From the NCBI GenBank assembly GCA_016217905.1, contig JACRFL010000013.1, positions 3,184-67,183 on the forward strand: a DNA stretch of 64,000 nucleotides, written 5' to 3'. Positions 7,483 to 64,000 of this stretch are shown here, one piece after another. The DNA comes from Candidatus Kaiserbacteria bacterium. Lineage in GTDB: Bacteria; Patescibacteriota; Minisyncoccia; Phycocordibacterales; Phycocordibacteraceae. A program made the translations under genes and the position numbers. How positions within the stretch are numbered: the first letter of the stretch is position 1; every line of letters starts with the position of its first letter. The notes beneath the pieces are model-generated. The model was not told the origin of the DNA. It worked only from the letters and a program-made list of their open reading frames with translations, and ran no database searches.

Positions 7483-10224
7483 TTAATAATTCACCTCGAT
7501 CTTCCCCTTATTAGTCGTAAGATCGATGACAGCTAATCCCGGTAAGATTTTCTTGATCTCTCTTTCACTCTTATCTTCTTCGCTCTTTACCTCTTCCTCA
7601 ATCCTTGTCACGTTCTTCTTCGCATCGTAATGACCCTCGATCTTCAGAGTGCCCACTGTTGTTTTTTCTTCAAGCTCTTTAATGGCTTCGGTTTTGTCTG
7701 TGGACCACTCATATTTTAACATCGTCTTAGGGAGCAGTTCCGCAGATATGCCGCTGTATCGGAGCTCTTGGATTTCCAATTTGAGTTCGTGTTTTCCTTG
7801 ATTGAGTTTCTTGAAGACGATCTGCAGTGTGTTGCCGGCTTCGTCGGCAATGGTGGTGCTCGTGGCTGTTGTTAGGACAGTGGTACTGGAGAGATTATCA
7901 GTCCCGATAATCTTAAATTTTTGCGATGCCGGATCGAAAGTCAGGACTGCTTCCGGCGGTGTGATGTCGAACACAATCGTCTTTCCGATTTCCGACTTGA
8001 ACGAGAAGTCGGTCGTGCCATTCCCATCATAGTCGAGAAGAAGAGGTGAGGCGTTTTGGAGGGTGCCGTCGATAAATGTCATAGTCGCTTTGGTGCTTGT
8101 TGCAGACGGGATGGCGGAGAGGGTGCTTGAGGCGATAATGGTATTGCTCCCGTCTATTTCTTGCATATCAAGCGTGAATGAGCCTGTGGCGTAGCCGTCA
8201 AGGTTGAGGGTGAGAGGAGTGTTCTTGGGAACGGTGATCACTTGAACTTCGCCGTAGCGCTTAAAGCGGCCGCCGGGGATGGTGGAAGTGGCAGCATTAA
8301 CGACGTTGCCGAGGTTATCGGTGGCAGAGAGATTGAGAGGCGAGTGGAGAAGGAAGCGGAGACGTTTGTCGGCAACTGCGTCGGTGGCAGGTTGGGTGGT
8401 GAAAATAAATGCCAGTGGTGTTGTTGAGGTGGAATTGGTGAGAATGTTTTGAACCAGCGTGCGGAGTTCGGGGATTTCGAGGATGTCGGCGTGCTTGCGC
8501 GGGACATTTCCATTAAGCCACCATTTATTATAATCCTCCAAATTCACCCAGTACTTCCCCGCTGTCGAAGCAGTCGTTGTCCACAGTGCGCTCGGAACGA
8601 GTACCGTGCCATCTCCTTCCACAACCTCTTTGGGGCTGTAGGTGATTGCCGGAGAGACGGTGCAGGTGCGCACATCTGACATATCACTGCAATACGTTTT
8701 CCTCCCTTCCTGGTATTCAATCGTCGCAAGGGTATCCTCTCCCCACCCGGCGATTTCGTAGAGCTGCACTCCCTGCGGAGGCGCCCACGTATCAAGAGCA
8801 TTATGAACCGCTTCCGCTTTGGAAAGAAGTACCGCATTCCCTACACTCGGGTAGATGAGGTCGCTTGGTGATGATGAAGCGAGACGTCACGCGTCGGCAA
8901 TGAAGTTTTTAAGTTGCGCTCCGTCATGAATCGTACTGCCATAACGCGCGCGGAATGCGGCGAGAAAATCTGAATCATCAAACTTCACGACCGGATTATC
9001 GACATAGGTGAAATAGTTTGCCGACGGGAGAAGGTTGTACGCACTTGGCATATTTGCTGTAAGCGTGCGAGCGGTTTCGGGAGAAAGGAAAACAGAAAGC
9101 CAATCCTTGGGCAATCCCTGTTCGTATCCGTGAAGAATCGCGCTAATCGCTTGCGGCGTTCCCGCCTGCGGCACGGCAATAAAAATGATCTTGTCGATGA
9201 GTTTGGCGGCTTCCGTATCGACGAGCTTCTGGATAAGCGCTTTGGTCATGAGTCCGCCGTTACTGTGCGCGACGATGGTCACCTTGCCCGTCTTCGAGCT
9301 TTTAGCCAGTCGGCGGAGCTCTTGACTGATATAGGGCGACGAAGTCGCCCTAAGGTCGCCGGAATAGTAGATGCGGCCGTCGGGAATGGGAACGGGCACC
9401 ACCAGACTCGTGGTAACGACGTGCCCGGATCCATCGTAGGCGGTGATGGTAATTTTAATTGAGGCGGCGATACTGAGAGCGTTCGACGGACTGTCGTTAA
9501 GAATAAATGGCACACGAGTGAATGAGCCATCGACCGAGGAAGCGATCGCTGTTGTGAGCAAATTTTTGCCATAGTCAATTCCACCGCTGGAACCAAAAAT
9601 CGGATTCCCTAGTGCGTCCCATAACGTTTCCCTGATCTGATATATGGTTAAAACGCTACCGGTGCCGTCCGATAACCCGCTCAAATACATAACGTCGCCT
9701 TTTTGGGGCGGCACGACTGAGAATGAAATGTCAGTGAGCGAAATCGTCGGCGGAACGTTGTCGATTATTATCTTCGTGCTACCCGTGGCAACATTCCCCA
9801 CCGCGTCAGTGGCTATCACCGAGATGGTCTTAAGACCATCGGGAACATCCGCACCGATAGTTAGCGGCCAGAATTTAAAAAAATAATCCGGGTAATAATC
9901 GGCACCATTGATATAAAAATGATACGGATTATTTCCCCCCGATAAAGGCGTAGTGGTCGGGCTTAAGAAACCTATCTGTGAAAGATCGGCTGAGATGGTC
10001 GGTACCCCTTGCCAGCTTTGCACGTTAATTGTAATCTGCTGGTTCGCGTCACCCGCTTTAAGTGTGGTTTGATACATTCCGTATCCCAAAGTCGAAATCA
10101 TCGGCAGGTCTCCAATTCTGACTTGAGCCACGTACAGTGGTGAACTCGCCTGAACTAAGGACGGAAAAATAAAAAACACGAGCGAAAAGAAAAACGGCCA
10201 AAAAACTTGTGCACGGGTGTGCAT
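7483..10224 (-). CDS. Giant secreted alpha/beta-hydrolase (lipase/PGAP1-like) domain protein; ORFs 8887-10224 and 7483-8769 are joined in frame across a TGA at 8887-8889
   Basis: N-terminal signal peptide (MHTRAQVFWPFFFSLVFFIFPSLVQASS). Lipase-type nucleophile elbow VTIVAHSNGGLMTKAL. The frame is continuous from the TGA to the downstream ORF (…FIADA*RLASSSPSDLIYPSVGNAVLL…GVQLYEIAGW…) with no independent ATG or RBS for the second ORF. Atypically low GC. Confidence 0.55.
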
Positions 10225-14137: not shown

Positions 14138-16135
14138 TTATTCGGCCGGGGTCGCCTCCGTCGGAGCGCTCTCGACAACTGCCGGAGCGCTCTCCGCCAC
14201 CACTGCCGCCGGCTCCGCTGGAGCGACTGCGGGCTCGGGGATGGCTGGCTCGACCGGCGTTTCCACGGCCGCTTCCGGCTCCGGAGAGAGAATGTCCTCT
14301 TCACGTGTGACGGCCGGCTCGACCGCCGCCGGCTGATCGGGAGCGGCCGTCTCCGCGGGAGCGGTCTCTTGAGACGTTCCCTCTGTCGAGATAGTCGTTT
14401 CAGACGCCACGATCTCGGTCTCCTCGGACGCACCTTCCTCGACCGGCAGCGGCGCCACGACGTTCTCCGGCCCGATGAAGAGGGGGAACGGATCATAGAT
14501 TCGGCCGCTCACGCTGCCAGAATTGAGCATCGGATTTTCCGGACCGATGGCGACGAGATGGATCCAGATGTAGCCGAGGAATCCGGACGGCACCGTCCAG
14601 GTAAACGCGCCGTCGTTTCCAGTAGTTTCGACTATCGTGTGCGTCGTGTCACCCAGACTTATTTTTCCGTCGTGGTTTACGTCCTTCACGTAGTAGATGC
14701 CGATGTCGAGGTCGCCGTCGGGGCCGTTGTTATTCGTCGCCGTCCACTTGATCTCGTAACTGTGCGTCCAGTACCACGTGTACGAGCCTCCCTCGTCCGG
14801 GTAGACGAGATCGATCGAAGGCGGCACGAGTTCTTTCCAATCGGAGGGCGCGTCGGTGTCGTAACCGGAAGGTACTCGAGCAAGGACGTTGCCCTCGGCG
14901 ACATTTGCCGCCCCGGGATCCCAGACGTTCGGATTGTAATTCGTCCATCCGGTGTCGGGGGTGCCCCAGTTCATCTGGTCGACGATAATCCTGTCGGGAC
15001 GTTTGAGGACAAGCATGTCGGCGTCGTTATCCAAACCGCCCCCGATTTTCGAATGTATGTTGATTTCGGTCACCTCGCTCGGCAGATACCAGTACGCGGG
15101 CAGGCCGCTCGAAACGGTCGTTGAGGTGGCGGTGGTTGACGTGGCAACGATGACCGCATATTTCTGCGCGGGAATGAGGAGTGTCGTCGGCAGGGTGTCA
15201 CACGAGGTGTTGTCGCAAATCTGCCATCCGGAAATATCCAAAGGCACGTTTGTCTGATTGTAGATCTCCACCCATTCGTTCGTACCCTCCGCACCGCGCT
15301 CCGGCGTTTTCACGTTGTAGTAGATCTTGTTGATCCGGAATCCCCACGAAGCGAGATGGTTTTTTACTTTTTCCGTATCGTTAAATCCGCCACCCTCGTA
15401 GCTCGGGTAGTCGTGCCGCGTTTGCCAGCCGTTGTAATCGATGTCGAAGTCGCAGGTGCGGTTTTGGAGATTGCTGGTCCCCGCCGTGTAGGCGAATTCC
15501 CACGGGTCGAGCGCGGTTGTCGTGGCGGTGAGGAGCCCCGTAAGAGGACCGTGATACATCTGGGTGCCCCCGCGCGTCGCGGTAACGTCAAGCCCCGAGC
15601 AGAAATCGGCATCGCCGGTAAAGTTGGTCGAGGTGGCGAAGTATTGAAACGGATTGCTCGCTTGCGGGTCGATCGCAACCGTCTTTTTCGTAACATCTCC
15701 GGGCGGCATCGACACGGCCGTACTCGTCGCCTGCCAGCCGGAAGTTGTCAGCGAGAAATCGACCGAACCCGCCCGGAAGGCATTCTCGGTCGAGCTCTCG
15801 ATATCGTTGTAGTATCCCCTTGTACTGCCGAGGCCGGTGATGCCGACGCTGTTAAGGCCGATCATGAGCGTGACGGCGAGCGCTTTAAGCGACAGCCGCG
15901 GCGTCGCCCTTATAAAAAACGGAGAGAGGACGCTCTTGCGCCTGTTCGCCCGCGCCGCGCGCGGCGCGCACGCGGCGCGCGGGCGCAGATCGAGCACATG
16001 CGCAGACGACGCGACGCGACGCGCCTTCCTCCTGGCGACCCTTCTCACCGGCACGGAAACACGCGCAGCGACAGTCGCTTTTTCTTTTTTCCGGGGAGTC
16101 TTCTTTATCGCTCCCGTTTTAATATGTACCGCCAT
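14138..16135 (-). CDS. Lamin-tail-domain (LTD) protein with SipW-cognate-like signal region and Pro/Glu/Ala-rich C-terminal tail (start uncertain: 16135 or internal MIGLNS)
   Basis: N-terminal K/R-rich segment then TM (LKALAVTLMIGLNSVGITGLG). This is followed by GYYNDIESSTENAFRAGSVDFSLT, resembling the TasA/camelysin SipW-cognate motif. LTD signature GTNEWVEIYNQTNVPLDISGWQI ... IPAQKYAVIVA. C-terminal low-complexity PEPEAAVETPVEPAIPEPAVAPAEPAAV. Confidence 0.65.
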   Translation of the reverse strand: MAVHIKTGAIKKTPRKKEKATVAARVSVPVRRVARRKARRVASSAHVLDLRPRAACAPRAARANRRKSVLSPFFIRATPRLSLKALAVTLMIGLNSVGITGLGSTRGYYNDIESSTENAFRAGSVDFSLTTSGWQATSTAVSMPPGDVTKKTVAIDPQASNPFQYFATSTNFTGDADFCSGLDVTATRGGTQMYHGPLTGLLTATTTALDPWEFAYTAGTSNLQNRTCDFDIDYNGWQTRHDYPSYEGGGFNDTEKVKNHLASWGFRINKIYYNVKTPERGAEGTNEWVEIYNQTNVPLDISGWQICDNTSCDTLPTTLLIPAQKYAVIVATSTTATSTTVSSGLPAYWYLPSEVTEINIHSKIGGGLDNDADMLVLKRPDRIIVDQMNWGTPDTGWTNYNPNVWDPGAANVAEGNVLARVPSGYDTDAPSDWKELVPPSIDLVYPDEGGSYTWYWTHSYEIKWTATNNNGPDGDLDIGIYYVKDVNHDGKISLGDTTHTIVETTGNDGAFTWTVPSGFLGYIWIHLVAIGPENPMLNSGSVSGRIYDPFPLFIGPENVVAPLPVEEGASEETEIVASETTISTEGTSQETAPAETAAPDQPAAVEPAVTREEDILSPEPEAAVETPVEPAIPEPAVAPAEPAAVVAESAPAVVESAPTEATPAE

Positions 16136-16158
16136 ATATCGGTGTGGAGGTCAGACCT

Positions 16159-16704
16159 TCATAGCGCGGCAGAATCACCGAGAGGATCTTCTCCTTTCGG
16201 CCGCTTCATCTTCCGCACCTCCCTCCGGATATTCTGCGCTTCGTCGAAGACGACGATGACAGCCGGCACGCCGATGAGAAGAACGAATCCGAACGGCTTT
16301 TTCGCGAAGTCGAGCAGGTAGCCGAGATACGGGACCGAGAAGAGCACCTTCCCGATTACCTCGCTTTGCCGCACCAGCTGCGGATCGGAATCTTCGTTCG
16401 CGTCTCCCTTCGTCGTGTAGTAGAAGACGCCGCCCCTCACCTCGTCAGAGACGATGCGATGGGTCGTCGGGACTTGCGTCTTCGTGTCCGGCCCGAACAT
16501 GATGACGTCTCCCACCGCGTACTTCCCGAGAGGCTTGACCACCGTGAGCGCGCCCGTCTTGATGGTCGGCTCCATTGAGCCCGACTGAACTATTTTCACC
16601 TCGATATTCCCCGGTATCGGCACCAGGCTCACCACGAGGAGCGCGCCAAGCGCAAGGACGGCGCCGACGAGGACGTAATATGCGGTTTTGAAGAGTGTGT
16701 GCAT
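16159..16704 (-). CDS. sipW: Signal peptidase I, SipW/archaeal-eukaryotic type (S26B)
   Basis: N-terminal TM then SGSMEPTIKTGALTVV catalytic-Ser block typical of SipW/Sec11-type peptidases. Sits between the TasA-like genes and the LTD gene. Confidence 0.8.
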   Translation of the reverse strand: MHTLFKTAYYVLVGAVLALGALLVVSLVPIPGNIEVKIVQSGSMEPTIKTGALTVVKPLGKYAVGDVIMFGPDTKTQVPTTHRIVSDEVRGGVFYYTTKGDANEDSDPQLVRQSEVIGKVLFSVPYLGYLLDFAKKPFGFVLLIGVPAVIVVFDEAQNIRREVRKMKRPKGEDPLGDSAAL

Positions 16705-16798
16705 GCGTGGCTCCGCTCGAGCCCCGGCTCTTCCGCGCCGCGAACATGCGGCGCGGAACCTGCCGATACTCGAGCGCTACTCGGTCAAGAGAGATCTC

Positions 16799-18127
16799 TT
16801 ATTCAGGAGTGTAGGGCGGACGACTCGCAATACTCGTGCACCTGAAGCCAGAGTTGCTCCTTGTTTGCTCTGCGTACGCCGTCAAAGACGCCGAGAATGA
16901 ATCCGACTGCGCAATGTTACCCATTCCAGAACCGTTGCAGCCGAATGCGCTGCCTGGAGTAGCGGTGAGCGTTCCTGCACACCATACAAGACCGATATTC
17001 TTGGTAGTGGTGGCGGTGAGGAATTGACCATTGCTGGGATCCATACTCATGATGCTGGTGAGCGATGAGAGCGGTCCGACGCCGCCGAGAGGAGTCTCGC
17101 CCACGTCATAGAGACCATTCCCGTTGGTATCTCCCCAGGTGAATACATTGAGGAAGTTGGATAACTCGCCTTTTCCAGTTGGATTACCAACCCCGTTCGC
17201 GTCACCCGCTGCTATTTCAGGAGCGAGTGGTTGTGCCGGGTTCTCTTGGTCATCTTTGTCGCCCACGATAAGGCATGAGTAGGCATCGTTGCTCGACACA
17301 TGAAGCGATATTTCATTTGTACCCCAGTCAGCCGGCTTTACATCTCCAAAGTTGAAGAATGTATCTCCTTGGCCAAGGTCCTTTTCCGTCCAAAGCCGGC
17401 AGACCTGCTGGAAGGCAGAATCTGCTTTACACTGCGCCGGATCACGATGAATATTCAGCTTGAAGAGAAGTCCAGCCGGATTCCCTGAAGAGCCTCCGCC
17501 GGCAGACATGTTACGAACAACTATGTCAAGCGTGTTCTGTCCGTTCACCATCGCTCCCATGAAGGCGGCCTCTTGAGCGCCAGTCAAGGAAACAGCCGGA
17601 TTATAGTTGAACTCGAGAGGGAGCTTATCGACAATAGTTGTTCCGTTGAGGATAATCTTGTACCCGTTGTCAGCCGCGAGAGCGAGATCTAAGTTCACGC
17701 TCACGACAGAGCCGTTCCACTGGAACTTGTTCTCGAATGTGTACTCTGCGTTATTGGTCGTATCGTTCAACGTTGTCGGATCAGTCGCCCAGATCCACTG
17801 CGCCGGAGCGAGAGCGGCTTCGCTCTGCCAGGCCGGATGTGGGCTGCTCACGTCAACAGCCGGAATGGGGAAAGGACCCTGATTTGAGGCTCCCGCGCTT
17901 GCTGCCACGACCTTTGTTGCTGTAGAGCTGTACACATTCACACTGCACGTCTCACAGTCTACGCCATTGTAGGTCTGCTTCGTGTGATCCACCTTGAGGT
18001 CAATGGAACCCGCGGTGAAGATGTTGCCCGTCGAGGTCTCGGTGTCAGCGTAGAACGCGATGGTCCCGCCGACCGCGAGAGCCGCGACGACCGCTATCGT
18101 CCCAGCGCTAAGAAGAATTTTATTCAT
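16799..18127 (-). CDS. TasA/camelysin (CalY)-family protein with SipW-cognate class signal peptide
   Basis: N-terminus MNKILLSAGTIAVVAALAVGGTIAFYADTETSTGNIFTAGSIDLKVD matches the TIGR04088-type SipW-cognate signal (GT.A.F.D.E.S.GN.FTAG..DL). Confidence 0.8.
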   Translation of the reverse strand: MNKILLSAGTIAVVAALAVGGTIAFYADTETSTGNIFTAGSIDLKVDHTKQTYNGVDCETCSVNVYSSTATKVVAASAGASNQGPFPIPAVDVSSPHPAWQSEAALAPAQWIWATDPTTLNDTTNNAEYTFENKFQWNGSVVSVNLDLALAADNGYKIILNGTTIVDKLPLEFNYNPAVSLTGAQEAAFMGAMVNGQNTLDIVVRNMSAGGGSSGNPAGLLFKLNIHRDPAQCKADSAFQQVCRLWTEKDLGQGDTFFNFGDVKPADWGTNEISLHVSSNDAYSCLIVGDKDDQENPAQPLAPEIAAGDANGVGNPTGKGELSNFLNVFTWGDTNGNGLYDVGETPLGGVGPLSSLTSIMSMDPSNGQFLTATTTKNIGLVWCAGTLTATPGSAFGCNGSGMGNIAQSDSFSASLTAYAEQTRSNSGFRCTSIASRPPYTPE

Positions 18128-48243: not shown

Positions 48244-51063
48244 TTAGGCGCCGAGGATCGCGAGCGCACGAGTAAGCGCGAGCTTCGCGCCCGTCACGCC
48301 CGTCGAGTAGCTGGAGTCGATAGCGGTTGTGAGGGAGGCAACGAGCTTCTCCAGAACCGGCGTCGAAAATCGGGCGGTCAAGCGTACGATTCCGGCATCG
48401 CAGGTAGTGCCGTCAATACGCGCGCGATACGCGTCGTCGATGAGGCAGACGATGCTTGAGAGAAGCTGCTCCGGCGCACCGGCACCCTGCACATGCCCCC
48501 GCAACCCAGCGAAGACCGCGGCACGGTCGCCCTCAAGCAGCGCGGCGGCAAAATCGCGAACGGATGCGGGTGCTGCAACTGCCGTCGCCGCCTCGCCGGT
48601 ATCGGCGGCAATCGGTTCGACGTTTTCATACACCGGCTCAACCCTTTCATATATCGGCTCTACTCGCGGCGCCGGTTCCCCTTTTTCTTCGACAGTTCGC
48701 GGAAGATGGTGCCGCGAAAGGCTCTTCACGATGTCATCAATCGAGAGCGCGCCGTCGTGCGCAAAAGACTTGAATCCGTGGTACGGCGAATACCCGCGCG
48801 GCGTCGCGGGCTCTGGCACAGGGAGAAGAGATTCGTTTTTCTCCGGAGGTTTCGGGTGCGGCGGAGCTACGGAAACGGCCCGCGTGGAAAGCGCAGTCGA
48901 AACGCGGGAAACGAAGCTGCGAATCGAGCGGTTCGCGAACGGCACCGCGCCGAAGAGCACGAGATACGCAAGCGCGAGCGCCCATCCGACAAGGGCGATC
49001 CAATACAGTACCGTGCCGACGGGTCCGAGCTCAAGGCCGGTGTACGGAATTTGAGAAAGATAGAGATACGCGAGCGGTTGCGCGTTCACGTGCGGAAGCG
49101 CCGCAAGCGTGATGGTCGGCGGAGGCGGGCCTCCTCCGCCACCACCGCCACCACCGCAGTTGCTGGTGCATCCGCCTCCGCCTCCGCCAGTCACAGAGAG
49201 CGCCGCGGTACAGGTGAGCGTCTGGCCGGTATTCGCCGTGAATACACCGGTGTACGTGTAGCTGCCTACGGCCGTCGGCGACACACTTGTCGAACTCGGT
49301 ATCGTCGTCGTCGCGCCGACACCGTTGTCTATAGACACGCTTTGTATTCCCGAGCCGCCCCACGAGAGCGTCGCCGAACTGCCAGAAACAATGCTGGTCG
49401 GACTGACGGCGAGAACGCACGACGGACCTCCGCCGCCGCCTCCGCCTGTGTTAACCGAGACCGTCGCGGTACAAGTCGCGGTTCCACCCGTCGGACTCAC
49501 CACTGTGCCGGTAAAGATAGTGTCCGCATTGATCGCGAGAGACATTATCGAACCGCCCACTGCGGGACTCACCGAGCCGATGCCCTGATTAATACTGAAA
49601 GTGTCGGCATTTGTGGCCGTCCACGTAAGCGATGCGCGATCGCCTCTATTCACTTTCACCGGAGAGGCGAGAAGCGTGCAGGTGGGTGCGGACGGAGGGG
49701 GTGGGGGTGGGGGTTTCGTCGTGACCGTCACCGTCGCCGCGCAAGTTGCCGAGCCGCCCGCGCCGGTGGCGGTGCCGGTGTACGTGGTGGTAAGGGTCGG
49801 CGAGACCGACTTCGAGCCGGACGCGACCGGCGCCACGGAGCCGATAGTGTGATTAATCGAGAACGATGCCGCATTCGCGGTCGTCCAAGAAAGTGTCGAA
49901 GGCGAGCCGGTCTGAATAGTCGTCGGCGATGCGACAAGGGTGCAGGTGGGAGCGGGAGGTGGGGGTGGGAGATGCGGGTATGTGCAGGTGATACCGGCCT
50001 GGCTCGTCGCAGCCGGGTTGTAGTTGGTGGCGGAGGGGTCCATACAGCCGTAAACGGGAGGGGGCGGGGGCGGTGTTGGGGTGACCGTAACGGTTGTCGA
50101 GCACGTTACAGAACCGCCCGCGCCGGTGGCGGTGCCGGTGTACGTGGTGGTAAGGGTCGGCGAGACCGACTTCGAGCCGGACGCGACCGGCGCCACGGAG
50201 CCGATAGTGTGGTCGATGGAAAATGCCGCAGCACTCGTCGTCGTCCATGAAAGCGTTAAAGAGGAGCCGACTTGGACGGTCGAAGGCGACGCCGAGAGTG
50301 CACAGGCAGGAGTGACAAGGGGCGGAGGAGCGCAACCCGGATCAGTCCCTATGTATTTATAGTTTCGCGGAGTCGAATCATCGTAGGCCCAGATCTGCCA
50401 GTTATTCCCGTTTAGATCATTACCGCCAGTACAGTAATTGGTCCAGATGGGCTCGACGACAACGGGAGCGACACATCCGTTCGCAATCGTTCCGTTTTCT
50501 ACAAACAGGTAGTTCGTCGGGGTGGAATTATCGTATGCCCATATTTGCCATGGGTGCAAAACGTCATTCGCTCCCGTACAGTAATTAGTCCACACGGGGG
50601 GCGGGGACGAGACTGCGATCTCAGCCGTACAGGTACCCTCCCCGCCCGGGCCCGAGACAGTCATCGTGTAGTTCGTCGTCGCTGTGACGGAGATTGTTCG
50701 AGAGCCGGAGTCAGCGGGCGAAACCGCTCCTACACCGTTGTCGATAGCTGCGCCCGTGGCCGTAGTCGTTGTCCACGAGAGCGTCGAGGAGCCGCCGCCG
50801 AAGGCGAGCGAAGCCGGGTTCGCGGAGAGCGCGCAGGTGGGTGCGGGCGGCCCGTCTAGACCGCCGCCGCCGCCGTCACCAGCGCCGCCTCCTCCCCCGC
50901 CCCCATCTCCGCCGCCACCTCCTCCACCGCCCCCATCTCCCTCGGCAAGCGCATGGAGAACGCCGAACGGAGACAACTCACCGTAGTGCTGCAGCACAAA
51001 GCCGCGCGAGAGCGCGAGTAGCATAAAAAGCAGTATCAGGGTGATCGAATATCGGAAAGGCAT
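48244..51063 (-). CDS. Giant cell-surface protein with tandem Ig-like repeats, poly-Gly/Pro linkers, a C-proximal IPYTG + TM + basic segment and a roughly 200-aa cytoplasmic tail
   Basis: Signal peptide MPFRYSITLILLFMLLALS. At least five repeats of about 75-90 aa (P.C.L.ASP..V..G...TLSWTT ... Y.GT.TG.GG. ..C). Two repeats share about 100 nt of identical DNA (49750-49850 vs 50110-50210). Sorting-signal-like SQIPYTGLELGPVG[TM]NRSIRS. Confidence 0.65.
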   Translation of the reverse strand: MPFRYSITLILLFMLLALSRGFVLQHYGELSPFGVLHALAEGDGGGGGGGGGDGGGGGGGAGDGGGGGLDGPPAPTCALSANPASLAFGGGSSTLSWTTTTATGAAIDNGVGAVSPADSGSRTISVTATTNYTMTVSGPGGEGTCTAEIAVSSPPPVWTNYCTGANDVLHPWQIWAYDNSTPTNYLFVENGTIANGCVAPVVVEPIWTNYCTGGNDLNGNNWQIWAYDDSTPRNYKYIGTDPGCAPPPLVTPACALSASPSTVQVGSSLTLSWTTTSAAAFSIDHTIGSVAPVASGSKSVSPTLTTTYTGTATGAGGSVTCSTTVTVTPTPPPPPPVYGCMDPSATNYNPAATSQAGITCTYPHLPPPPPAPTCTLVASPTTIQTGSPSTLSWTTANAASFSINHTIGSVAPVASGSKSVSPTLTTTYTGTATGAGGSATCAATVTVTTKPPPPPPPSAPTCTLLASPVKVNRGDRASLTWTATNADTFSINQGIGSVSPAVGGSIMSLAINADTIFTGTVVSPTGGTATCTATVSVNTGGGGGGGPSCVLAVSPTSIVSGSSATLSWGGSGIQSVSIDNGVGATTTIPSSTSVSPTAVGSYTYTGVFTANTGQTLTCTAALSVTGGGGGGCTSNCGGGGGGGGGPPPPTITLAALPHVNAQPLAYLYLSQIPYTGLELGPVGTVLYWIALVGWALALAYLVLFGAVPFANRSIRSFVSRVSTALSTRAVSVAPPHPKPPEKNESLLPVPEPATPRGYSPYHGFKSFAHDGALSIDDIVKSLSRHHLPRTVEEKGEPAPRVEPIYERVEPVYENVEPIAADTGEAATAVAAPASVRDFAAALLEGDRAAVFAGLRGHVQGAGAPEQLLSSIVCLIDDAYRARIDGTTCDAGIVRLTARFSTPVLEKLVASLTTAIDSSYSTGVTGAKLALTRALAILGA

Positions 51064-51163: not shown

Positions 51164-52261
51164 TTATTCGATCCAGTGCTCGTTCATGATGCAATCCGGG
51201 ACCGGATTGCTGTCCCACTCGCCGAGCGTAGTGCCCGGCAAACGGTTGAAGAACCGGAGCTCGTGGAGCCCCGTTTGGTGATATCGAGGCGGCGATACGA
51301 CATCATCGTTTATCGATACAACCCGGATTGCATCCCAAGTCTCGAGCTGAGCTCGTGAAAACTGAAGCTCGTGGAGCCCCGTTATCGGGACATCGCCAAG
51401 GACGTGCTCCTCGGTTACCGCAGGCGCTTCGCCGCGAACCTCCGGTGTCATGATGAACGACACACGGAAGACCCTGGTGGTCGCACTGCGCGCGATTTCT
51501 CCGGCAGCGTAGGCCTTGCGGAACTGCCCGCCGTGCATCCGCGAGACATGCGATGCTCCGACGAATTTTTCTTCGAGCTCTTCTTTTGCCGCCGTGCGCT
51601 CGACCCCAGGAAGGTTGAATGCTTTGCGTTCCCAAACGTTCACCTTCAGGGTGTACACGTCCGGGCACGCCCCGAGTGGCTTGAGAACGGCAGGCACTAC
51701 CGGTTGTTCCGGAGAAGCCGTTGCCACCCAGCTGACGTTGAAGCACACGAATGGGAGGTACAGAACGTAAACCTTCCCTTCGTGCGCAAACGTCCACGAG
51801 AACGCCTTCGCCGCTTCGGCGACCGCGCCCTTGCGGTACGACCGGCCGTCGGGCGATTTGAGAACCGGCAATTCCCCCACCGTGACGTTGTTCATCACGT
51901 GCGGTTTGGGGCCGCCGCTCCACATCTGCTCGAGCCGCTGGTGCGGCGTAAGCCACACCTCGGTGCCGCCTTTGCAGGTGGCGCCGAGAGCGGCCTTGAA
52001 ATGCTCCTTGACCGGCGGCGGCATGTTAAAGCCGTCGATGGACTCAATAAGCACTTTCGCGCATGCTTCCTCTTTCGAAGAAGCAAACGGTGCGATGTTC
52101 CACCTGTCCCATTTCACTCCGGCCTCGGCTGCTCGCACCTCCGGGATGACCATTGTCGGAATGAATATGAGCAGCAAAAACGCTGCGAACAGGAGAAGCA
52201 CCTTGAAGGCGATTTCCCGCACTTTGATTTTCATAGCACTTCTCCTGCCTGTGCCGCGCAA
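51164..52261 (-). CDS. Secreted/membrane-anchored hypothetical protein
   Basis: N-terminal hydrophobic signal-anchor (AFKVLLLFAAFLLLIFIPTMVIP). No recognisable family. C-terminal NRLPGTT motif without a following TM. Confidence 0.5.
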   Translation of the reverse strand: MRGTGRRSAMKIKVREIAFKVLLLFAAFLLLIFIPTMVIPEVRAAEAGVKWDRWNIAPFASSKEEACAKVLIESIDGFNMPPPVKEHFKAALGATCKGGTEVWLTPHQRLEQMWSGGPKPHVMNNVTVGELPVLKSPDGRSYRKGAVAEAAKAFSWTFAHEGKVYVLYLPFVCFNVSWVATASPEQPVVPAVLKPLGACPDVYTLKVNVWERKAFNLPGVERTAAKEELEEKFVGASHVSRMHGGQFRKAYAAGEIARSATTRVFRVSFIMTPEVRGEAPAVTEEHVLGDVPITGLHELQFSRAQLETWDAIRVVSINDDVVSPPRYHQTGLHELRFFNRLPGTTLGEWDSNPVPDCIMNEHWIE

Positions 52262-53061: not shown

Positions 53062-53844
53062 ATGTTATGTATAACGCATCCTATGGACACACCGGACACC
53101 CATATGTCAGCCCGCCAGACGGCCACAAACGTCCTTGCGGTCGTCGGCTTCATCGCGATTATCGGCGCGAGCCTCTGGCTCGCCGCGTACTCGACGCGTT
53201 TCGTCCCCTCGGTGGCGGGGCGCATCGGCAGCGCGGCCGTGTACCTCGGCTCGATCTTCTCCTCTTCCGAGGAACCCGCTCTCTCGGTTGTCTCGACGCC
53301 AGCCGCGTCCTCGACAATCACTTTTGGTGAGGCGGTTTTAACCACGACTGATGAAATAACGCTTCCCGTAACGCCCCCAAAAGCGCCCGCCCCGACCCCG
53401 GGCGCAAAGACGAGCAACGTGTACTCGCTCGGCAGTGCAACGACGACCGCCCCCGCCGTGCAAGGGGGACTTCCTGATCTCATCGTAAACATCGATGCGA
53501 TCGGCTACCTCGCCACAACCTCGGCGGAATCCTTCATCGCCAGCTCGACCGTCCCCGTTCACAACCGCCCGGCGGTCGCGTTTACTATCAAAAACGTCGG
53601 TACGGGCGCGACCGGAACGTGGCGCTGGAGCGCATCCATCCCGACGCAAACTGCATATATATACCAGTCGCAGCCGCAGCAGTCGCTGAATCCAGGCGAC
53701 CGTATCGACTATACACTCGGCTTCGACCAGGCGAATAAGGGCGCTCAGACCATCTCCATTACCGCAAACTTCGACCGCGCTGTCGTCGAGTCGAACTCGA
53801 ACAATAACAGCGCTTCCGTAAACGTAACTATTCTCGGTTCCTAA
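53062..53844 (+). CDS. Secreted/membrane-anchored CARDB-domain protein (alternative start 53104)
   Basis: TM anchor. C-terminal CARDB-like beta-sandwich (DLIVNIDAIGY ... FTIKNVGTGATG ... ESNSNNNSASVNV). Confidence 0.55.
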   Translation: MLCITHPMDTPDTHMSARQTATNVLAVVGFIAIIGASLWLAAYSTRFVPSVAGRIGSAAVYLGSIFSSSEEPALSVVSTPAASSTITFGEAVLTTTDEITLPVTPPKAPAPTPGAKTSNVYSLGSATTTAPAVQGGLPDLIVNIDAIGYLATTSAESFIASSTVPVHNRPAVAFTIKNVGTGATGTWRWSASIPTQTAYIYQSQPQQSLNPGDRIDYTLGFDQANKGAQTISITANFDRAVVESNSNNNSASVNVTILGS

Positions 53845-58579: not shown

Positions 58580-59815
58580 ATGAGTCCCGAGGCGTTTGCA
58601 TATCCGTTTCTTTTCATCGCGATATTCTTCGAGTCGTTCATCCTTGTGACGTTCCTCTCGAAGCCCGCGCGCGCTGCGCGCGCGCGTACGCCAAATACGG
58701 AAACGCCCGCGGTCGCCGTCATCGTGCCTTGCTACAATGAGGCCGCGACGGTCGCCGGCACCTGCGAGTCGCTCCTCGCGCTTGACTATCCGAAGGAGAA
58801 GCTCGAGGTCATCCTCGTCGACGACGGTTCGACCGACGGAACCACGAAAGCGATGGCGCGCTTCCGGGGTCATCCGCAGATTCGCGTCATCCGCAAGGAA
58901 AACGGCGGGAAGCATACCGCGCTCAACGCCGGCATCGCCGCGACCTCTGCGGAAATCATCGGGTGTCTCGACGCCGATTCATTCGTCGAGCCGGACGCGC
59001 TCCGTGAGATCGTACCGTGCTTCGCGAATTCGCGCGTGGCGGCGGTCACCGCCGCCATGTCGGTGCATCGCCCGAAAAACCTGCTCCAGCACATGCAGAA
59101 CGCCGAATACACTTTCGGCATCACGCTCCGCCACACGCTCGCCTCGATCAACGGCCTCTACGTCACCCCAGGACCTTTCTCGTTTTATCGACACACCACG
59201 CTCAAGGAGATTGGAGACTTCCGGTACGGCCACCAGACCGAGGACATGGAGATGGCTCTCCGCATCCAGCGGGCGGGTTATGAGATCGAGAACGCGCCAC
59301 GCGCGCGCGCGTACACGAAATCGCCGAACACCATTGCGAAACTTCTCAAGCAGCGCACCCGCTGGACGACCGGATTCTTGAGGAACATTCTCGGAGAATA
59401 TCGCTGCCTCGTGGGGAATCGCGCCCACGGCGCTCTCGGTATGCTGGTGCTCCCTACCGCACTCATCGCCATCGGCGGCGGCATTCTTACTTTTTCTGCC
59501 ACGCTTTTCAATTTTGCCCGGCACGCTATGGCCGCAGCCGAGGTCCGCGCCGGCGTTCCGCTCTCCTATACGCTCCTGATGCGCGGCCCGTTCGATTGGT
59601 TCTATCTCCCCGTGAGTTTTTTCCTGCTGCTCGGCGCGACGATGCTTGTCGCCTCGTTTTCTTTGATCGTCACCGGCAAGCGCATTTCAAAAACGCCGGG
59701 TAACCTTGTGCTCGGCATCGTCTCATATGCGTTCCTCTACGGCCTCGTCGCGCCGCTGTGGCTCCTGCGCGCCACTACCGATGTCGCGCTCGGAAAGCGC
59801 CGCCAGTGGCGCTGA
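58580..59815 (+). CDS. GT2-family processive beta-glycosyltransferase (NodC/HasA/PgaC/cellulose-synthase-like), polytopic membrane protein
   Basis: VIVPCYNE, ILVDDGSTDGT, CLDADSF, QTEDMEM, KQRTRWTTG (QxxRW). Start MSPEAFAYPFLF at 58580; the tracker start 58151 was rejected because it overlaps pheS. Confidence 0.75.
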   Translation: MSPEAFAYPFLFIAIFFESFILVTFLSKPARAARARTPNTETPAVAVIVPCYNEAATVAGTCESLLALDYPKEKLEVILVDDGSTDGTTKAMARFRGHPQIRVIRKENGGKHTALNAGIAATSAEIIGCLDADSFVEPDALREIVPCFANSRVAAVTAAMSVHRPKNLLQHMQNAEYTFGITLRHTLASINGLYVTPGPFSFYRHTTLKEIGDFRYGHQTEDMEMALRIQRAGYEIENAPRARAYTKSPNTIAKLLKQRTRWTTGFLRNILGEYRCLVGNRAHGALGMLVLPTALIAIGGGILTFSATLFNFARHAMAAAEVRAGVPLSYTLLMRGPFDWFYLPVSFFLLLGATMLVASFSLIVTGKRISKTPGNLVLGIVSYAFLYGLVAPLWLLRATTDVALGKRRQWR

Positions 59816-59822
59816 TTCTCCC

Positions 59823-60491
59823 ATGTCGCTTCTCGCCAGAAACGCTCTCATAGCCCTTGTCATCACGATCGTGCTCATCGGTACGGTCGCCTATGCACTC
59901 AGCTACCTGAACAACGCCCGCATCGCCGAACTCGCCGCCATCGAGGATCAGCTCTCAATTGACACGCTCTCTCTCGATACGCAATTCTCCCTCCTTGAAG
60001 CGGCGCCGTGCGACAGCGCCGCTTCGTCGACCGCATTTACCGGAACGCTCGCTGACTTGGGCGACCGCCTCTCCTACGCCGAAAGCCAGCTCGGTACGGA
60101 CAACCCACAGGTGGTGCGGCTGAAGCAGCACTATTCCCTGCTCGAGATACGCGACTATCTCATTACCAAGAAACTCGCCGCCGCTTGCAAGACGAAACCC
60201 ATAACCGCGCTCTATTTCTACAGCAATGCCGGCGACTGCGCCGATTGCGACCGGGCTGGCTACGCGCTTTCTTATCTGCGCGACACGTACCCGAATCTGC
60301 GCGTCTATTCGTTCGACTACAATCTCGACCTTGGCGCTTTGGAAACGTTCATCGCGCTCGAGGGCGTGCGGCGGTCGTTGCCGGCTTTCGTCATTAACGA
60401 GAAACCGTTCTACGGCTTTACCTCGCTCGAAGAGCTTGAAAAACAATTCCCGAAAGGGGTGTTCGCAACGACAACCGGTTCCACGCTTTGA
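59823..60491 (+). CDS. Membrane-anchored hypothetical protein with CxxC (CADC) motif downstream of the GT2 synthase
   Basis: N-terminal TM (ALIALVITIVLIGTVAYAL). No family recognised. Confidence 0.45.
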   Translation: MSLLARNALIALVITIVLIGTVAYALSYLNNARIAELAAIEDQLSIDTLSLDTQFSLLEAAPCDSAASSTAFTGTLADLGDRLSYAESQLGTDNPQVVRLKQHYSLLEIRDYLITKKLAAACKTKPITALYFYSNAGDCADCDRAGYALSYLRDTYPNLRVYSFDYNLDLGALETFIALEGVRRSLPAFVINEKPFYGFTSLEELEKQFPKGVFATTTGSTL

Positions 60492-60569
60492 GTCTCAATT
60501 GTACTCCGCTAGAATCTAGTTTAGCAAAAATCTCGACCGACTTCGCACGCGCCGAGGCCGTATGCGCTT

Positions 60570-60607
60570 GCCCCAGAGCCCGCGCGTACTCGCGCGGGCT
60601 CTGGGGC
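60570..60607. terminator. 17-bp perfect hairpin (GCCCCAGAGCCCGCGCG tact CGCGCGGGCTCTGGGGC) between convergent genes
   Basis: Seen directly. Lies 5 nt from the stop of the minus-strand gene. No clear T-tract. Confidence 0.45.
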
Positions 60608-60611
60608 AGAA

Positions 60612-62324
60612 TCACGAATTCGAAATGTCTCGTATCTCTTTTGTAACCACTTCTTCTGCCTCTTCAAGTTTTTGCTCAAATTGTTCCAAAAATTCCGCTT
60701 CTTCGTCTGTCAGTTTTCTATTGACTTTCTTGAGCCGAGCCACATGTTTTTGAACGCCATCGCGAAGGACCTTAAACGCTCGTTCGGATGTTTTCTCCGC
60801 CTCCCGTGCTTCACGTCGCATACGCGATATGGTGCGGGGAATCCTAAACCAGAGGCGAGCTCCGATCCAAACAAGAGCGCCGAGTGCGAGCAATATTAGG
60901 ATTGCGACAGAAAGATATTTCAAAGTGAAACCAATAAGACCTGTCACAAACTCCGATCGAACGGTAATCGTAAGTGGGGATGTTTCTGCACTCTGTGCTC
61001 CTCGATCATCTTTCACGTGGAGGATTATGGTGTACACGCCGGGGTCAAGCCGTTTGGTGGCCACAAGCGCAAAGTCGCCCAAAGAGTTGCTTCGGGTAAA
61101 TTCCTCCGACATCAGTGAGTTACCTTCGCGGATGGAGACGATTACATCGGAATCGGGATAGGTCGTTCCCCTGACTTTCAGAATATCTCCCTCTTCTATC
61201 GCCTCCGGATAGTGGGTAATGACCGGAGCGTCGATGCCTTCAATCGTAAACTCTGCCGATCCGCTGCGAATGTTGCCGGCGTTGTCTATGGCCGATACAA
61301 AAAGAGTATAGGCACCGGGAATCTGTGACGGGAGAACATACGGATTGGATTCCGCAAGGGGAGCTGTCTTGACCGGCTTCGTATCACTTCCTATTTTGAT
61401 TTCGTAGTGACTTATCCCCGATTCGTTGTCTGTCGTGTTGAAGAAAACGACCGGCTGGGGTTCCAGCCCCTTGTTTCCGTGCGGGAAGGAGATAGAGAAT
61501 GGTTTCGGCGGAGTGGTATCAATATTCACGCGGTACCGCGAGACTGCGCTCCAGCCGGCAGAGGTGCGCGCTTGGAGCGAGAAGTAATAGGTACCATCCG
61601 GAAGCTCATCAATTTTCTTTTTTGAGATAGGCGGAATGTAGGAAACCGACGGATTGCCTACGGGAGATTTTCCAATGAGCGTGCGGACTTCAAGTGTACC
61701 CTCCGGCAACTTCCACGAAAATTCTGGCGTATTGTCTGCATACCATTTCCCCTGGTCCGGATGCGTGGCAGAGGTGATGCCGAGTGTGTTCCCGGTCGCG
61801 ACCGGGGGCGTTTCCGTTTGAGGCGCAAGAGGAGGCCTCTCTCCCGCGGCGGTGAGCGTAAAGACCGCCATCCGAAGCCCGTTTAAGATATTCATCCCTG
61901 TGCCATCGTTTGCCAGAACAGAGCCAGAGGAAAAGCTTAGATTCGCTTGCCCGGCACTCCGCGCGCGGAAGGTAATAGTAAGGATTTTCCCAGAGGCACC
62001 CGTATAGCCGGGGTTAAGCACGATACCTTCAAAAGAAACAGTGCCTTGGCTGTTCGAAAAAGACGGCTCCGCAGGCCAGAGAGAGAAAATTGACCCCTGT
62101 TTGGAAATAGAGACGACTTCAAACTTGTCCCACGGAAAAGACACGACGCCGGAAGCGGCATTCATCGCCTGATCGGAGCTCTCTACATTCACGTTTACAG
62201 AAAAGGTGCTGCCGACACTGTACGAACCAGACGGCGGCGAAAAATTGAGAGATGCCGCCTGCGCCGAAAACGGCGCAAGTACGAACAGTGCGAACACGAA
62301 CGTTATTTTATAAATCGTATCCAT
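60612..62324 (-). CDS. Surface protein with N-terminal cohesin-like domain, Ig-like region, C-proximal TM and cytoplasmic coiled-coil tail
   Basis: Signal peptide MDTIYKITFVFALFVLAPFSAQA. Cohesin-like beta-sandwich (ASLNFSPPSGSYSVGSTFSVNVNV ... KILTITFRARSAGQANLSF). TM TGLIGFTLKYLSVAILILLALGALVWIG. Charged tail. Confidence 0.55.
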   Translation of the reverse strand: MDTIYKITFVFALFVLAPFSAQAASLNFSPPSGSYSVGSTFSVNVNVESSDQAMNAASGVVSFPWDKFEVVSISKQGSIFSLWPAEPSFSNSQGTVSFEGIVLNPGYTGASGKILTITFRARSAGQANLSFSSGSVLANDGTGMNILNGLRMAVFTLTAAGERPPLAPQTETPPVATGNTLGITSATHPDQGKWYADNTPEFSWKLPEGTLEVRTLIGKSPVGNPSVSYIPPISKKKIDELPDGTYYFSLQARTSAGWSAVSRYRVNIDTTPPKPFSISFPHGNKGLEPQPVVFFNTTDNESGISHYEIKIGSDTKPVKTAPLAESNPYVLPSQIPGAYTLFVSAIDNAGNIRSGSAEFTIEGIDAPVITHYPEAIEEGDILKVRGTTYPDSDVIVSIREGNSLMSEEFTRSNSLGDFALVATKRLDPGVYTIILHVKDDRGAQSAETSPLTITVRSEFVTGLIGFTLKYLSVAILILLALGALVWIGARLWFRIPRTISRMRREAREAEKTSERAFKVLRDGVQKHVARLKKVNRKLTDEEAEFLEQFEQKLEEAEEVVTKEIRDISNS

Positions 62325-63172
62325 GTCCTTTTATAGAGAAGTGCAACGAGAACTAACACTATAAGTATAGCGAATAATCCTGACTTCTCCCACGGCGCGC
62401 GTGCATAGCGCGCCGGAACAACGGCAACTCGCTCATTTCCGGCGTGGTCTACCGCTTTCACATACACATCTCGGTTAAGGTCTCGATACTTTAGAAGATA
62501 GGGACTTTCTGCTTCTCTAAAGAATCCCCATCTACCTTCACGCACTTCATAATGGTCAATCCCCGAGGTTTTATCTTGAGTTGCGAAAACGAGAAAGTAT
62601 TTCCCGTCAAATAGGTTTGGGTCGCTTGAAATAGTCGGGTTAAAATCTTCCGGCAATTCCGTATCAATCAATGTCTCTTTACGCACATTGCTGTCTCCGT
62701 GTTTTATAGAAACGGCTGTATCACGAGTTGAGAGAACCGATTCTGTGCCTAGTCCATCATTTTTCAAAGCTTTTATATTTTGTAGCGCGACAGAAGCCAC
62801 TCCCGTATTTTTTGCCTCAAAAACTACGGAAAAGATATTGTTGTTCGCCCCGCTAAATCCTCCGGGAGTGATGCCGGAAAACAAGACGATACCCGGCGTG
62901 TCAACGCGGGGCTTCTCAACCCAGAAATTGATAACAGAATTACCATCGCGAATCTCTTTAACAGAAAGCAAATCCTGCGGAAATACCAGTCGCCCCTCAA
63001 TCGCATTTACAGACTCCTTCGAATGAAGGACTATATCTATCAAAAATTGCTCGCCAAAGTTAATTTCTGATTTATTCGCATCAAGGCGAATTTCCGCGGC
63101 GTATGCGCCATAGGGAACGCACGCGAGAAGCGCGAATGCAAAAAAGATGAGGGTTTTGTAAGAAAAAGTCAT
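62303..63172 (-). CDS. Surface protein with N-terminal cohesin-like domain and C-terminal TM anchor (start MTFSYK at 63172)
   Basis: Signal peptide MTFSYKTLIFFAFALLACVPYGAYA. Cohesin-like block (EIRLDANKSEINFGEQFLIDIVL ... NIFSVVFEAKNTGVASVAL). C-terminal TM LFAILIVLVLVALLY + KRTW. Confidence 0.55.
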   Translation of the reverse strand: MTFSYKTLIFFAFALLACVPYGAYAAEIRLDANKSEINFGEQFLIDIVLHSKESVNAIEGRLVFPQDLLSVKEIRDGNSVINFWVEKPRVDTPGIVLFSGITPGGFSGANNNIFSVVFEAKNTGVASVALQNIKALKNDGLGTESVLSTRDTAVSIKHGDSNVRKETLIDTELPEDFNPTISSDPNLFDGKYFLVFATQDKTSGIDHYEVREGRWGFFREAESPYLLKYRDLNRDVYVKAVDHAGNERVAVVPARYARAPWEKSGLFAILIVLVLVALLYKRTWIRFIK

Positions 63173-63173
63173 G

Positions 63174-64000
63174 TTAGCCAGTCCAGTTAAAAGCCATGAT
63201 ACTAAAATCGACCAGATCAACTTTGCCGTCGCCATTCAAATCGCTCGACGCAGGGGGGCTCGCGCGTTTATACCAATACGCCGCTACCGAGAAATCGACA
63301 AGGTTCACCCGACCATCCCCATTTGTATCTCCTTTCGCTACGACCTTCGGCAATTGAGCGAGCACATTTTTCGTGCCGACGGCAAAACCTATCACTTTGC
63401 TAAAAGAGCTAATTTCACCATTCAGGGCGACTTTTGATTTTGTATTATGTTGCCCCATTTCAAGCACCGAGGTATCAAAATTGAGTAAATATACTCCACC
63501 AGCATCAGACATTTTCTTCACAAAAAATTCTTCATTTGAATTAACGCTGATGGTGATTTCCGATGCGGGCGCACTCTGGCCGAAAATAGCGATATTGTCT
63601 CCCCGCCTCACTTCACCCTTGTCAACGGCGATAGTGGGTGCGATAAAGATACCGCTGATTTTGGTGGTCACGCCCGAAGTGATGAAAATTGGAAAAGTAA
63701 ACAAGCTGGAACGGATATTATTTTTATCTTCTCCATATACCGCAAATGTATAGTTGCCCGTTGAAAGACCGCTTATCGTGGCAGTAAAATTGCTGTCGGG
63801 ACCGGCAATAGTGGTCAGGGCGATCTGTCCATCCTTGAGAATACTAACTCGGCTCAAAGGATAGGCTCTCCCAGAGAAAACAACATTGGTATCAGGAATT
63901 GATGGTGAAGACGGAGCACCTCCACCGCCCCCTCCTCCACCACCACCGGAGGAACCGGACGTACATTGCGAAGTATTAAACGTACACGCGGACGTGCAAG
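63174..64000 (-). CDS. Dockerin-containing secreted protein; 5' end lies outside the window
   Basis: C-terminal tandem dockerin type-I repeats GDTNGDGRVNLVDFSVAAY ... DLNGDGKVDLVDFSIMAF. The upstream frame is open through 64000 (poly-Gly/Pro linker). Confidence 0.65.
   Translation of the reverse strand, partial: CTSACTFNTSQCTSGSSGGGGGGGGGGAPSSPSIPDTNVVFSGRAYPLSRVSILKDGQIALTTIAGPDSNFTATISGLSTGNYTFAVYGEDKNNIRSSLFTFPIFITSGVTTKISGIFIAPTIAVDKGEVRRGDNIAIFGQSAPASEITISVNSNEEFFVKKMSDAGGVYLLNFDTSVLEMGQHNTKSKVALNGEISSFSKVIGFAVGTKNVLAQLPKVVAKGDTNGDGRVNLVDFSVAAYWYKRASPPASSDLNGDGKVDLVDFSIMAFNWTG

Follow-up and report, generated by a model that had tools for sequence, protein, structure and literature searches.

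Cohesin and dockerin proteins encoded together in a Pam-type pilus operon of Paceibacteria

What is a cohesin–dockerin gene set doing in a member of Candidatus Kaiserbacteria? The question is raised by positions 60612–64000 of a 64,000-nucleotide stretch of DNA from such a bacterium (GenBank assembly GCA_016217905.1, contig JACRFL010000013.1, positions 3,184 to 67,183 of the forward strand; hereafter the window), where three adjacent genes encode a dockerin protein (D) and two cohesin proteins of 289 and 570 amino acids (a and B, respectively). An earlier note on this DNA, made from its letters alone, had likened the arrangement to a minimal cellulosome-type scaffold with its cargo and read it as a general surface display or adhesion system. 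The domain identities and the operon structure are established here: the trio forms the downstream part of a six-gene operon that opens with relatives of the Pam pilins, in the order pilin or tip adhesin, major pilin, a 338-residue protein (C), D, a and B, the first part of which lies beyond the window. On balance, we favour the view that D, a and B make up a cohesin–dockerin membrane complex that works as part of a Pam-type pilus apparatus in Paceibacteria. The module would then be non-enzymatic, dedicated and built into the operon of a chaperone-assisted, donor-strand pilus; we regard it as neither a cellulosome nor a generic display scaffold because a fixed, non-enzymatic trio is conserved in operons with Pam-type pilins.

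D, a and B are co-directional on the minus strand and are transcribed in that order. The stop codon of D (63174–63176) is followed by a single nucleotide and then by the ATG of a at 63172, a start that agrees with the NCBI record HY972_02820, and the genes for a (62303–63172) and B (60612–62324) overlap by 22 nt. The operon is translationally coupled. The gene order implied in the earlier note was reversed, with the dockerin gene transcribed first and not last. No intrinsic terminator was found 3′ of B. Records HY972_02820 (a) and HY972_02815 (B), from a Candidatus Kaiserbacteria metagenome-assembled genome (MAG), are identical to the cohesin proteins of the window. The window holds the 3′ part of D (63174–64000, minus strand; approximately residues 69–342 and the stop codon), whose frame is open to the window end; as had been supposed, the gene continues. 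Its remainder was recovered from the Logan contig L001, which encodes the same proteins, is identical to the window over an 876-base overlap and reaches 3.2 kb past the window end. On L001 the complete D gene (3023–4051, identical in the window overlap) encodes 342 amino acids, and the genes for C and D abut with zero gap. The trio region has a GC content of 0.47–0.54, against 0.57–0.62 across most of the window, in line with the lower GC reported in the earlier note.

Full-length D has a signal peptide, a Cys-rich repeat with faint matches to DUF4215 and myxo_disulf_rpt, a poly-Gly linker, two immunoglobulin (Ig)-like domains (~63348–63890, minus strand; weak Big_6 and Y_Y_Y matches) and a C-terminal, type-I-like dockerin module (residues 290–342; 63177–63335, minus strand). 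The dockerin is recognised by Pfam Dockerin_1 (PF00404) at 30.9 bits on the window fragment and 30.4 bits on the complete protein, with a cut-off of 22.9. Two EF-hand-like calcium loops, DTNGDGRVNLVD and DLNGDGKVDLVD, occupy a duplicated segment with Asp or Asn at positions 1, 3, 5, 9 and 12, and the protein ends ...GDTNGDGRVNLVDFSVAAYWYKRASPPASSDLNGDGKVDLVDFSIMAFNWTG. In 65 orthologues these ligand positions hardly vary, which bears out the two calcium-binding repeats that had been read from the sequence. In loop 1, D1 is present in 65, N3 in 60, D5 in 63, N9 in 62 and D12 in 65; loop 2 retains N3 in 59, D5 in 64, Asp or Asn at position 9 in 61 and D12 in 65, while its position 1 is Asp in 34 only and otherwise mostly Arg, His or Lys. 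Across 66 orthologues, the Ig-like domains and the dockerin are the best conserved parts of D.

Extending the contig had been suggested as a way to find a catalytic or adhesive module at the N-terminus of D. The full-length protein contains no catalytic or carbohydrate-binding module; what it has there are the Cys-rich and Ig-like modules, of a kind typical of adhesins. D-family proteins were the sole dockerin carriers in the window and in all of the 80 related loci that we fetched, so that the idea of a scaffold with cargo is not supported: there is only one dockerin open reading frame (ORF) and no catalytic or variable cargo module. As a single-copy protein whose Ig-like and dockerin parts are highly conserved, D appears from its sequence to be a fixed structural partner and not variable cargo.

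Of the two cohesin proteins, B is the more readily recognised. It has a signal peptide, a cohesin domain (residues 34–140; ~61875–62255) that matches Pfam Cohesin (PF00963) at 31.7 bits (cut-off 24.1, E 2e-7), Ig-like domains (~60945–61787; Pfam Big_13, 41.4 bits), a hydrophobic segment at residues ~470–493 (~60846–60917) and, after it, a charged cytoplasmic tail of 77 amino acids rich in Lys, Arg and Glu (60615–60845). In 38 orthologues the cohesin domain is the best conserved region, and the tail keeps conserved acidic and hydrophobic positions. Homologues of B numbered 1237, with lengths clustering near 570 amino acids.

Protein a has no Pfam match of its own, so that of the HMM (hidden Markov model) checks proposed in the earlier note those on B and D gave scores above the cut-offs and that on a did not. 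It consists of a signal peptide, an N-terminal domain (~62693–63100), an FnIII-like domain (~62408–62650) and a C-terminal transmembrane (TM) helix (~62309–62395), all on the minus strand, as for B. BLASTP aligned its N-terminus with the cohesin region of B at 31% identity over 137 amino acids (E 5e-18); the second domain is common to both proteins as well. The two families align by hhalign with a probability of 100% (E 1.9e-42), and 10 of the 74 members of the a family match Pfam Cohesin at E ≤ 0.01, with no other family recurring. Sequence searches against the PDB with the a family profile and with the B protein gave insignificant matches only (cohesins 5aoz and 5m2s at E 0.5–0.8), and we therefore relied on comparison of folds. 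An AlphaFold2 model of a, built from the 74-sequence alignment with a mean predicted local distance difference test (pLDDT) score of 89.8, shows a pair of beta-sandwich domains followed by a helix at the C-terminus. In a Foldseek search of the PDB the top 50 matches were all cohesins, the best being 2w1n, the Coh+FN3 double module of Clostridium perfringens GH84C (E 2.4e-11), and the non-cellulosomal Archaeoglobus fulgidus cohesin 2xdh superimposed with TMt 0.78 and a root mean square deviation of 2.7 Å. By sequence and predicted fold, a is a cohesin-type paralogue of B. The description of two signal-peptide proteins with N-terminal cohesins and C-terminal TM anchors has thus held, for B by Pfam and for a by paralogy and fold, and both are predicted from sequence to be membrane-anchored.

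Do these modules amount to a minimal cellulosome, or another complex that degrades polysaccharides? Beyond the presence of cohesin and dockerin modules nothing speaks for it. The window contains no cohesins other than those of a and B, one per protein, and the single dockerin protein lacks a catalytic domain or carbohydrate-binding module (CBM). The flanking genes are pheS/pheT, gyrB, dnaE and those for a GT2 glycosyltransferase, an aminoacyl-tRNA synthetase, SMC and RNase R; among the flanking genes scanned or read directly there is no glycoside hydrolase, in agreement with the earlier observation that cellulolytic enzymes are missing nearby, and the host is a small-genome Candidatus Kaiserbacteria. 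With no enzymes, no CBM and no multi-cohesin scaffoldin, we rejected the cellulosome, which we consider effectively refuted. As the cohesins and the dockerin are real, both cohesin proteins are membrane-anchored and no glycoside hydrolases lie close by, a non-cellulosomal surface role is the right class, as the earlier note had concluded; its further step to a general display system does not fit a D that is single, conserved and a member of a pilus operon.

The trio is a stable genetic unit. Using the a family as query, we fetched 80 species-level loci of 236 relatives and labelled their ORFs by iterative HMM searches. Nearly all belong to Patescibacteria/Paceibacterota/Parcubacteria (Kaiser-, Taylor-, Wolfe-, Nomura-, Zambryski-, Falkow-, Doudna- and Portnoybacteria), with a few that are evidently mis-binned; taxon names are those of the records, some of which are clearly wrong. 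D lies directly upstream of a in 62/64 of these loci and B downstream of a in 67/70; the order D-a-B is kept in ~95% of the 80. Some loci have two to four B-like paralogues and a single D. At locus L078, a second, divergent dockerin-like gene (360 amino acids) followed by two cohesin-bearing genes (14330–17289, plus strand) is found 3.5 kb downstream of the main trio, in what looks like a co-duplication of both partner types. This pattern of conservation fits a specific, fixed partnership between dockerin and cohesins.

The alternative is that the dockerin-like repeats are calcium-binding structural motifs that bind no cohesin, and that D, a and B are three independent Ig-like envelope proteins. 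To our knowledge, many non-cellulosomal dockerin- or cohesin-like modules have no demonstrated partner, and EF-hand and FG-GAP models weakly touch the same loops of D. The adjacency of the dockerin gene to cohesin genes, seen at the main loci and again in the divergent L078 cluster, argues against such independence, as does the place of the cohesin as the most conserved part of B and of the dockerin among the most conserved parts of D. We consider this explanation improbable.

What lies upstream connects the trio to a pilus. Two proteins are encoded upstream of C on L001, the major pilin of 358 amino acids (918–1994) and one that is cut by the contig end (at least 270 amino acids). Both match the NCBIfam model NF058581, ‘Pam pilus system pilin subunit’, with scores of 86.9 and 76.3 bits, respectively (cut-off 55); on the PamT equivalog model NF058579 they reach 39–42 bits, far under its cut-off of 240. 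The pilins end ...TLTYVATANF and contain no LPXTG motif or TM segment, and no sortase is encoded among the six operon genes. In many related operons the first gene is a giant of ~1,000 to more than 2,800, and up to 2,900, amino acids (L002 1–4915, L099 1216–9831, L117 1–6234 and others). Six of seven such proteins tested, including those of L099 and L117, carry the NF058581 domain above cut-off at the C-terminus, and from their sequences the giants are probably tip adhesins.

The Pam pilus is a system specific to the candidate phyla radiation (CPR), described from Candidatus Mycosynbacter amalyticus (Troman et al. 2026, bioRxiv 10.64898/2026.03.03.709456). According to this preprint, its pilins PamA, PamB and PamE assemble by donor-strand exchange, with PamT as the tip pilin; PamC and PamD are PapD-like chaperones anchored by a C-terminal TM helix; PamR, which is RbmA-like with two FnIII domains and a TM helix, is proposed to terminate and anchor the fibre; and the Pam pilins were placed mainly in Saccharimonadia and Microgenomatia. 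Our operon shares with the Pam system the C-terminal pilin domain (NF058581), a CPR host and the lack of both usher and sortase. Protein C provides a further likeness, drawn by fold and description, as a Sec-exported protein with two Ig-type domains, a C-terminal TM helix and folds of the RbmA/PapD type. Its AlphaFold2 model (pLDDT 82) shows two Ig/FnIII-like beta-sandwich domains and a long C-terminal TM helix, and the best PDB fold matches are RbmA, Enterococcus faecium WxLIP and the chaperone-usher chaperones CfaA, CsuC and DraB; there is also a faint Pfam WxLIP_PGBD match (E 0.1), and the mature N-terminal strand reads LTVSPPRVEITG. Because of these fold matches, the modelled architecture of C resembles that reported for PamR or for PamC and PamD, and C may correspond to either type. 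The operon differs from that of M. amalyticus in its occurrence in Paceibacteria, its one C-type gene, the added D-a-B trio and the PamT scores far under cut-off.

The link between pilins and trio is seen from both directions. Among the loci fetched with a, C adjoins D in 39/61 and a Pam-type pilin gene lies upstream in 26/45, with two more found by HMM. For a reciprocal sample we fetched metagenome loci with the pilin family alone, blind to the trio, and took the best 80 of 242 relatives, counting only those with enough downstream sequence. Downstream of the pilin, C was present in 57/58, D in 39/43, a in 31/39 and B in 27/34. This two-way co-occurrence implies that pilin(s)-C-D-a-B is the normal state of the operon.

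How might the trio serve a pilus? We infer that the dockerin of D binds these two cohesins, and that the resulting complex is an anchor or terminator of the pilus and not a structure at work alongside it. All products of the operon would be exported by Sec. Proteins a and B would be held in the cytoplasmic membrane by their C-terminal helices, with the N-terminal cohesins outside, and D, itself without an anchor, would be kept at the surface because its C-terminal calcium-binding dockerin plugs into the cohesin of a, of B or of both. The D-a-B complex would then form a membrane-proximal platform or anchor of the fibre, and the cytoplasmic tail of B could couple the fibre to the cell interior. 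More speculatively, D could be the adaptor that links the membrane anchors to the last pilin. Mature D begins with ITVEITATV, then PGCGDG; this strand of alternating hydrophobic residues, a pattern kept in the short-type D (the form described here), might be the donor strand for the last pilin and occupy its groove. That Paceibacteria use a cohesin–dockerin joint to secure a donor-strand-exchange pilus in the cytoplasmic membrane is, as a complete scheme, a tentative proposal that we regard as possible rather than probable. Comparison of family profiles by hhalign found D unrelated to the pilins or to C, with a weak Ig-like resemblance to B only (probability 57%), and a local pilin HMM gave a single, compositionally biased match in the D family.

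Several points weigh against a pilus role for the trio. The published Pam operon of M. amalyticus was described without cohesin or dockerin genes and with its own proposed anchor, PamR, and C may itself have the anchoring role, in which case the trio would do another job. No NCBIfam family covers D, a, B or C. The reciprocal sample reaches close relatives of this pilin subfamily only. Finally, some loci, L022 and L031 among them, have trmD immediately before the trio and neither pilin nor C genes close by, so that the trio is able to occur without pilus genes, at least locally.

The last point also favours a stand-alone surface display or adhesion system, in which the membrane cohesins would present D as an adhesin to a host cell or substrate and the proximity to pilin genes would reflect only the shared regulation of surface structures. 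D is ~100 amino acids longer in the genomes where pilin and C are not adjacent to the trio, and the adhesin-typical Ig-like and Cys-rich modules noted above would suit such a role. On the other side, in ~80–90% of the pilin-centred loci the trio lies directly downstream, its genes abutting and oriented alike, and D is single-copy with highly conserved Ig-like and dockerin domains. We judge stand-alone display somewhat unlikely, and continue to prefer a complex that functions within the pilus apparatus.

The longer D has features of its own. In loci without adjacent pilin and C genes (L022 8586–9980, L031 8573–9919, L063 4054–5391, L077 8665–9990 and others), the additional ~100 amino acids stand at the N-terminus and form a domain with repeated S-x-N-F/Y motifs, e.g. 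EYSSTNYKVLDPV...GGYGSS.NF.L...AGFLYFP. Two of four such proteins match the N-terminal part of the PamT model weakly (E 1e-6 and 1e-4), far under the cut-off and partly over the signal peptide. Judged by these features, the long-type D may itself carry a pilin-like element.

How does the trio compare with known cohesin–dockerin systems? C. perfringens cohesin and dockerin modules are found on secreted glycoside hydrolases and toxins, where they assemble enzyme complexes. Protein a shares the layout of a cohesin followed by an FnIII module with 2w1n from C. perfringens GH84C, and the trio resembles the cohesin–dockerin pairs of C. perfringens and A. fulgidus (2xdh) in having no link to cellulose degradation. 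It differs from those of C. perfringens in its TM-anchored cohesins, its single non-catalytic dockerin partner and its position in a pilus operon. The anchoring scaffoldins of cellulosomes (SdbA, OlpB, ScaE) are SLH- or sortase-anchored and hold multi-cohesin scaffoldins loaded with enzymes. Likenesses to these are a dockerin built of duplicated calcium loops and helices and, as we propose here, a cell-bound cohesin that receives a dockerin partner; the differences are anchoring by a C-terminal TM helix, one cohesin per protein and the absence of enzymes. Sortase-dependent Gram-positive pili differ too, as the pilins of this operon are without LPXTG and their operon without sortase.

Two further systems have points of contact with the locus. 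The WxL clusters of Firmicutes encode WxL proteins and the membrane-anchored WxLIP, with DUF916/DUF3324 (Protein Sci 2023, PMC10599100). C is like WxLIP in fold (PDB 9i1y and 9i25, TMt 0.46–0.48) and in its C-terminal membrane anchor; unlike those clusters, the locus has no WxL-domain proteins, and the partners of C are Pam-type pilins and the cohesin–dockerin trio. An essential dockerin-domain protein of Southlakia, SEML1_0315 (Cell 2023, PMC10633639), was also considered and set aside, being the product of a lone 927-amino acid gene in a different context and not a form of this trio.

The domain calls themselves are not new, as some homologues are named ‘cohesin domain-containing protein’ in NCBI and the Pam pilus has already appeared as a preprint. 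Neither ‘cohesin’ nor ‘dockerin’ occurs in the text of that preprint (10.64898/2026.03.03.709456), and a link between cohesin–dockerin modules and CPR pili, or this six-gene operon of Paceibacteria, was not found in the searchable literature. Little is known of how CPR bacteria (Patescibacteria), which live on host cells to which they are attached, assemble their surface fibres and fix them in place; for the Pam pilus, first described in 2026, the anchoring step is a model derived from predictions. In over 1,000 homologue clusters from Paceibacteria, a fixed module of one dockerin and two cohesin proteins is part of such an operon, which makes it a concrete candidate, open to testing, for the complex that forms the anchor or base. 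The operon also extends Pam-type systems to the largest CPR class, would give cohesin–dockerin pairs a role unrelated to carbohydrate degradation, and allows three widespread ‘hypothetical protein’ families (~289, 342 and 570 amino acids), and a fourth of ~330, to be annotated. If D does join the fibre to the membrane as outlined above, this would be a new mode of pilus anchoring in place of an usher, a sortase or PamR, and the first cellular role assigned to cohesin–dockerin modules in CPR bacteria.

The operon as a whole (window positions 60001–64000 and L001 1–6646) has a GC content of 44–55%, compared with ~57–62% for the genome, and its proteins are unusually conserved between MAGs, with up to 83–89% identity. 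Recent horizontal spread among Paceibacteria and a constraint on composition are alternative explanations for low GC combined with high conservation. The taxon names on the records of operon-bearing contigs L007, L030, L041, L044, L049, L057 and L068 include Gammaproteobacteria, Nitrospira sp. and Methylomirabilis sp., and L036 (Peribacteraceae) and L037 (Paceibacterota) apparently carry the same operon, with equal gene sizes and identical D C-termini. Mis-binning or misnaming of MAG contigs is the probable cause.

Variants of C were also seen. A short form of ~200 amino acids, comprising the first beta-sandwich and the TM helix only, is encoded just upstream of D in L015, L018, L027, L054, L064, L069 and L079, and in these loci mature D begins ...TATVKISVCGDG. 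In L012, a chimeric ORF of 319 amino acids (7987–8946, plus strand) sits between normal C and D genes; its first ~150 residues are D-like (signal peptide, Cys-rich repeat and the start of the first Ig domain) and are joined at STGNYT to the C-terminal half of C with its TM helix. From its sequence, this ORF arose either by recombination or as an artefact of assembly.

Elsewhere in the window, which contains no tRNA genes, three ORFs have no Pfam family: one of 261 amino acids that is convergent with B (59706–60491, plus strand), and two on the minus strand of 939 (48244–51063) and 365 (51164–52261) amino acids. A 260-amino acid protein encoded at 53062–53844 on the plus strand carries a CARDB (cell-adhesion-related) domain.

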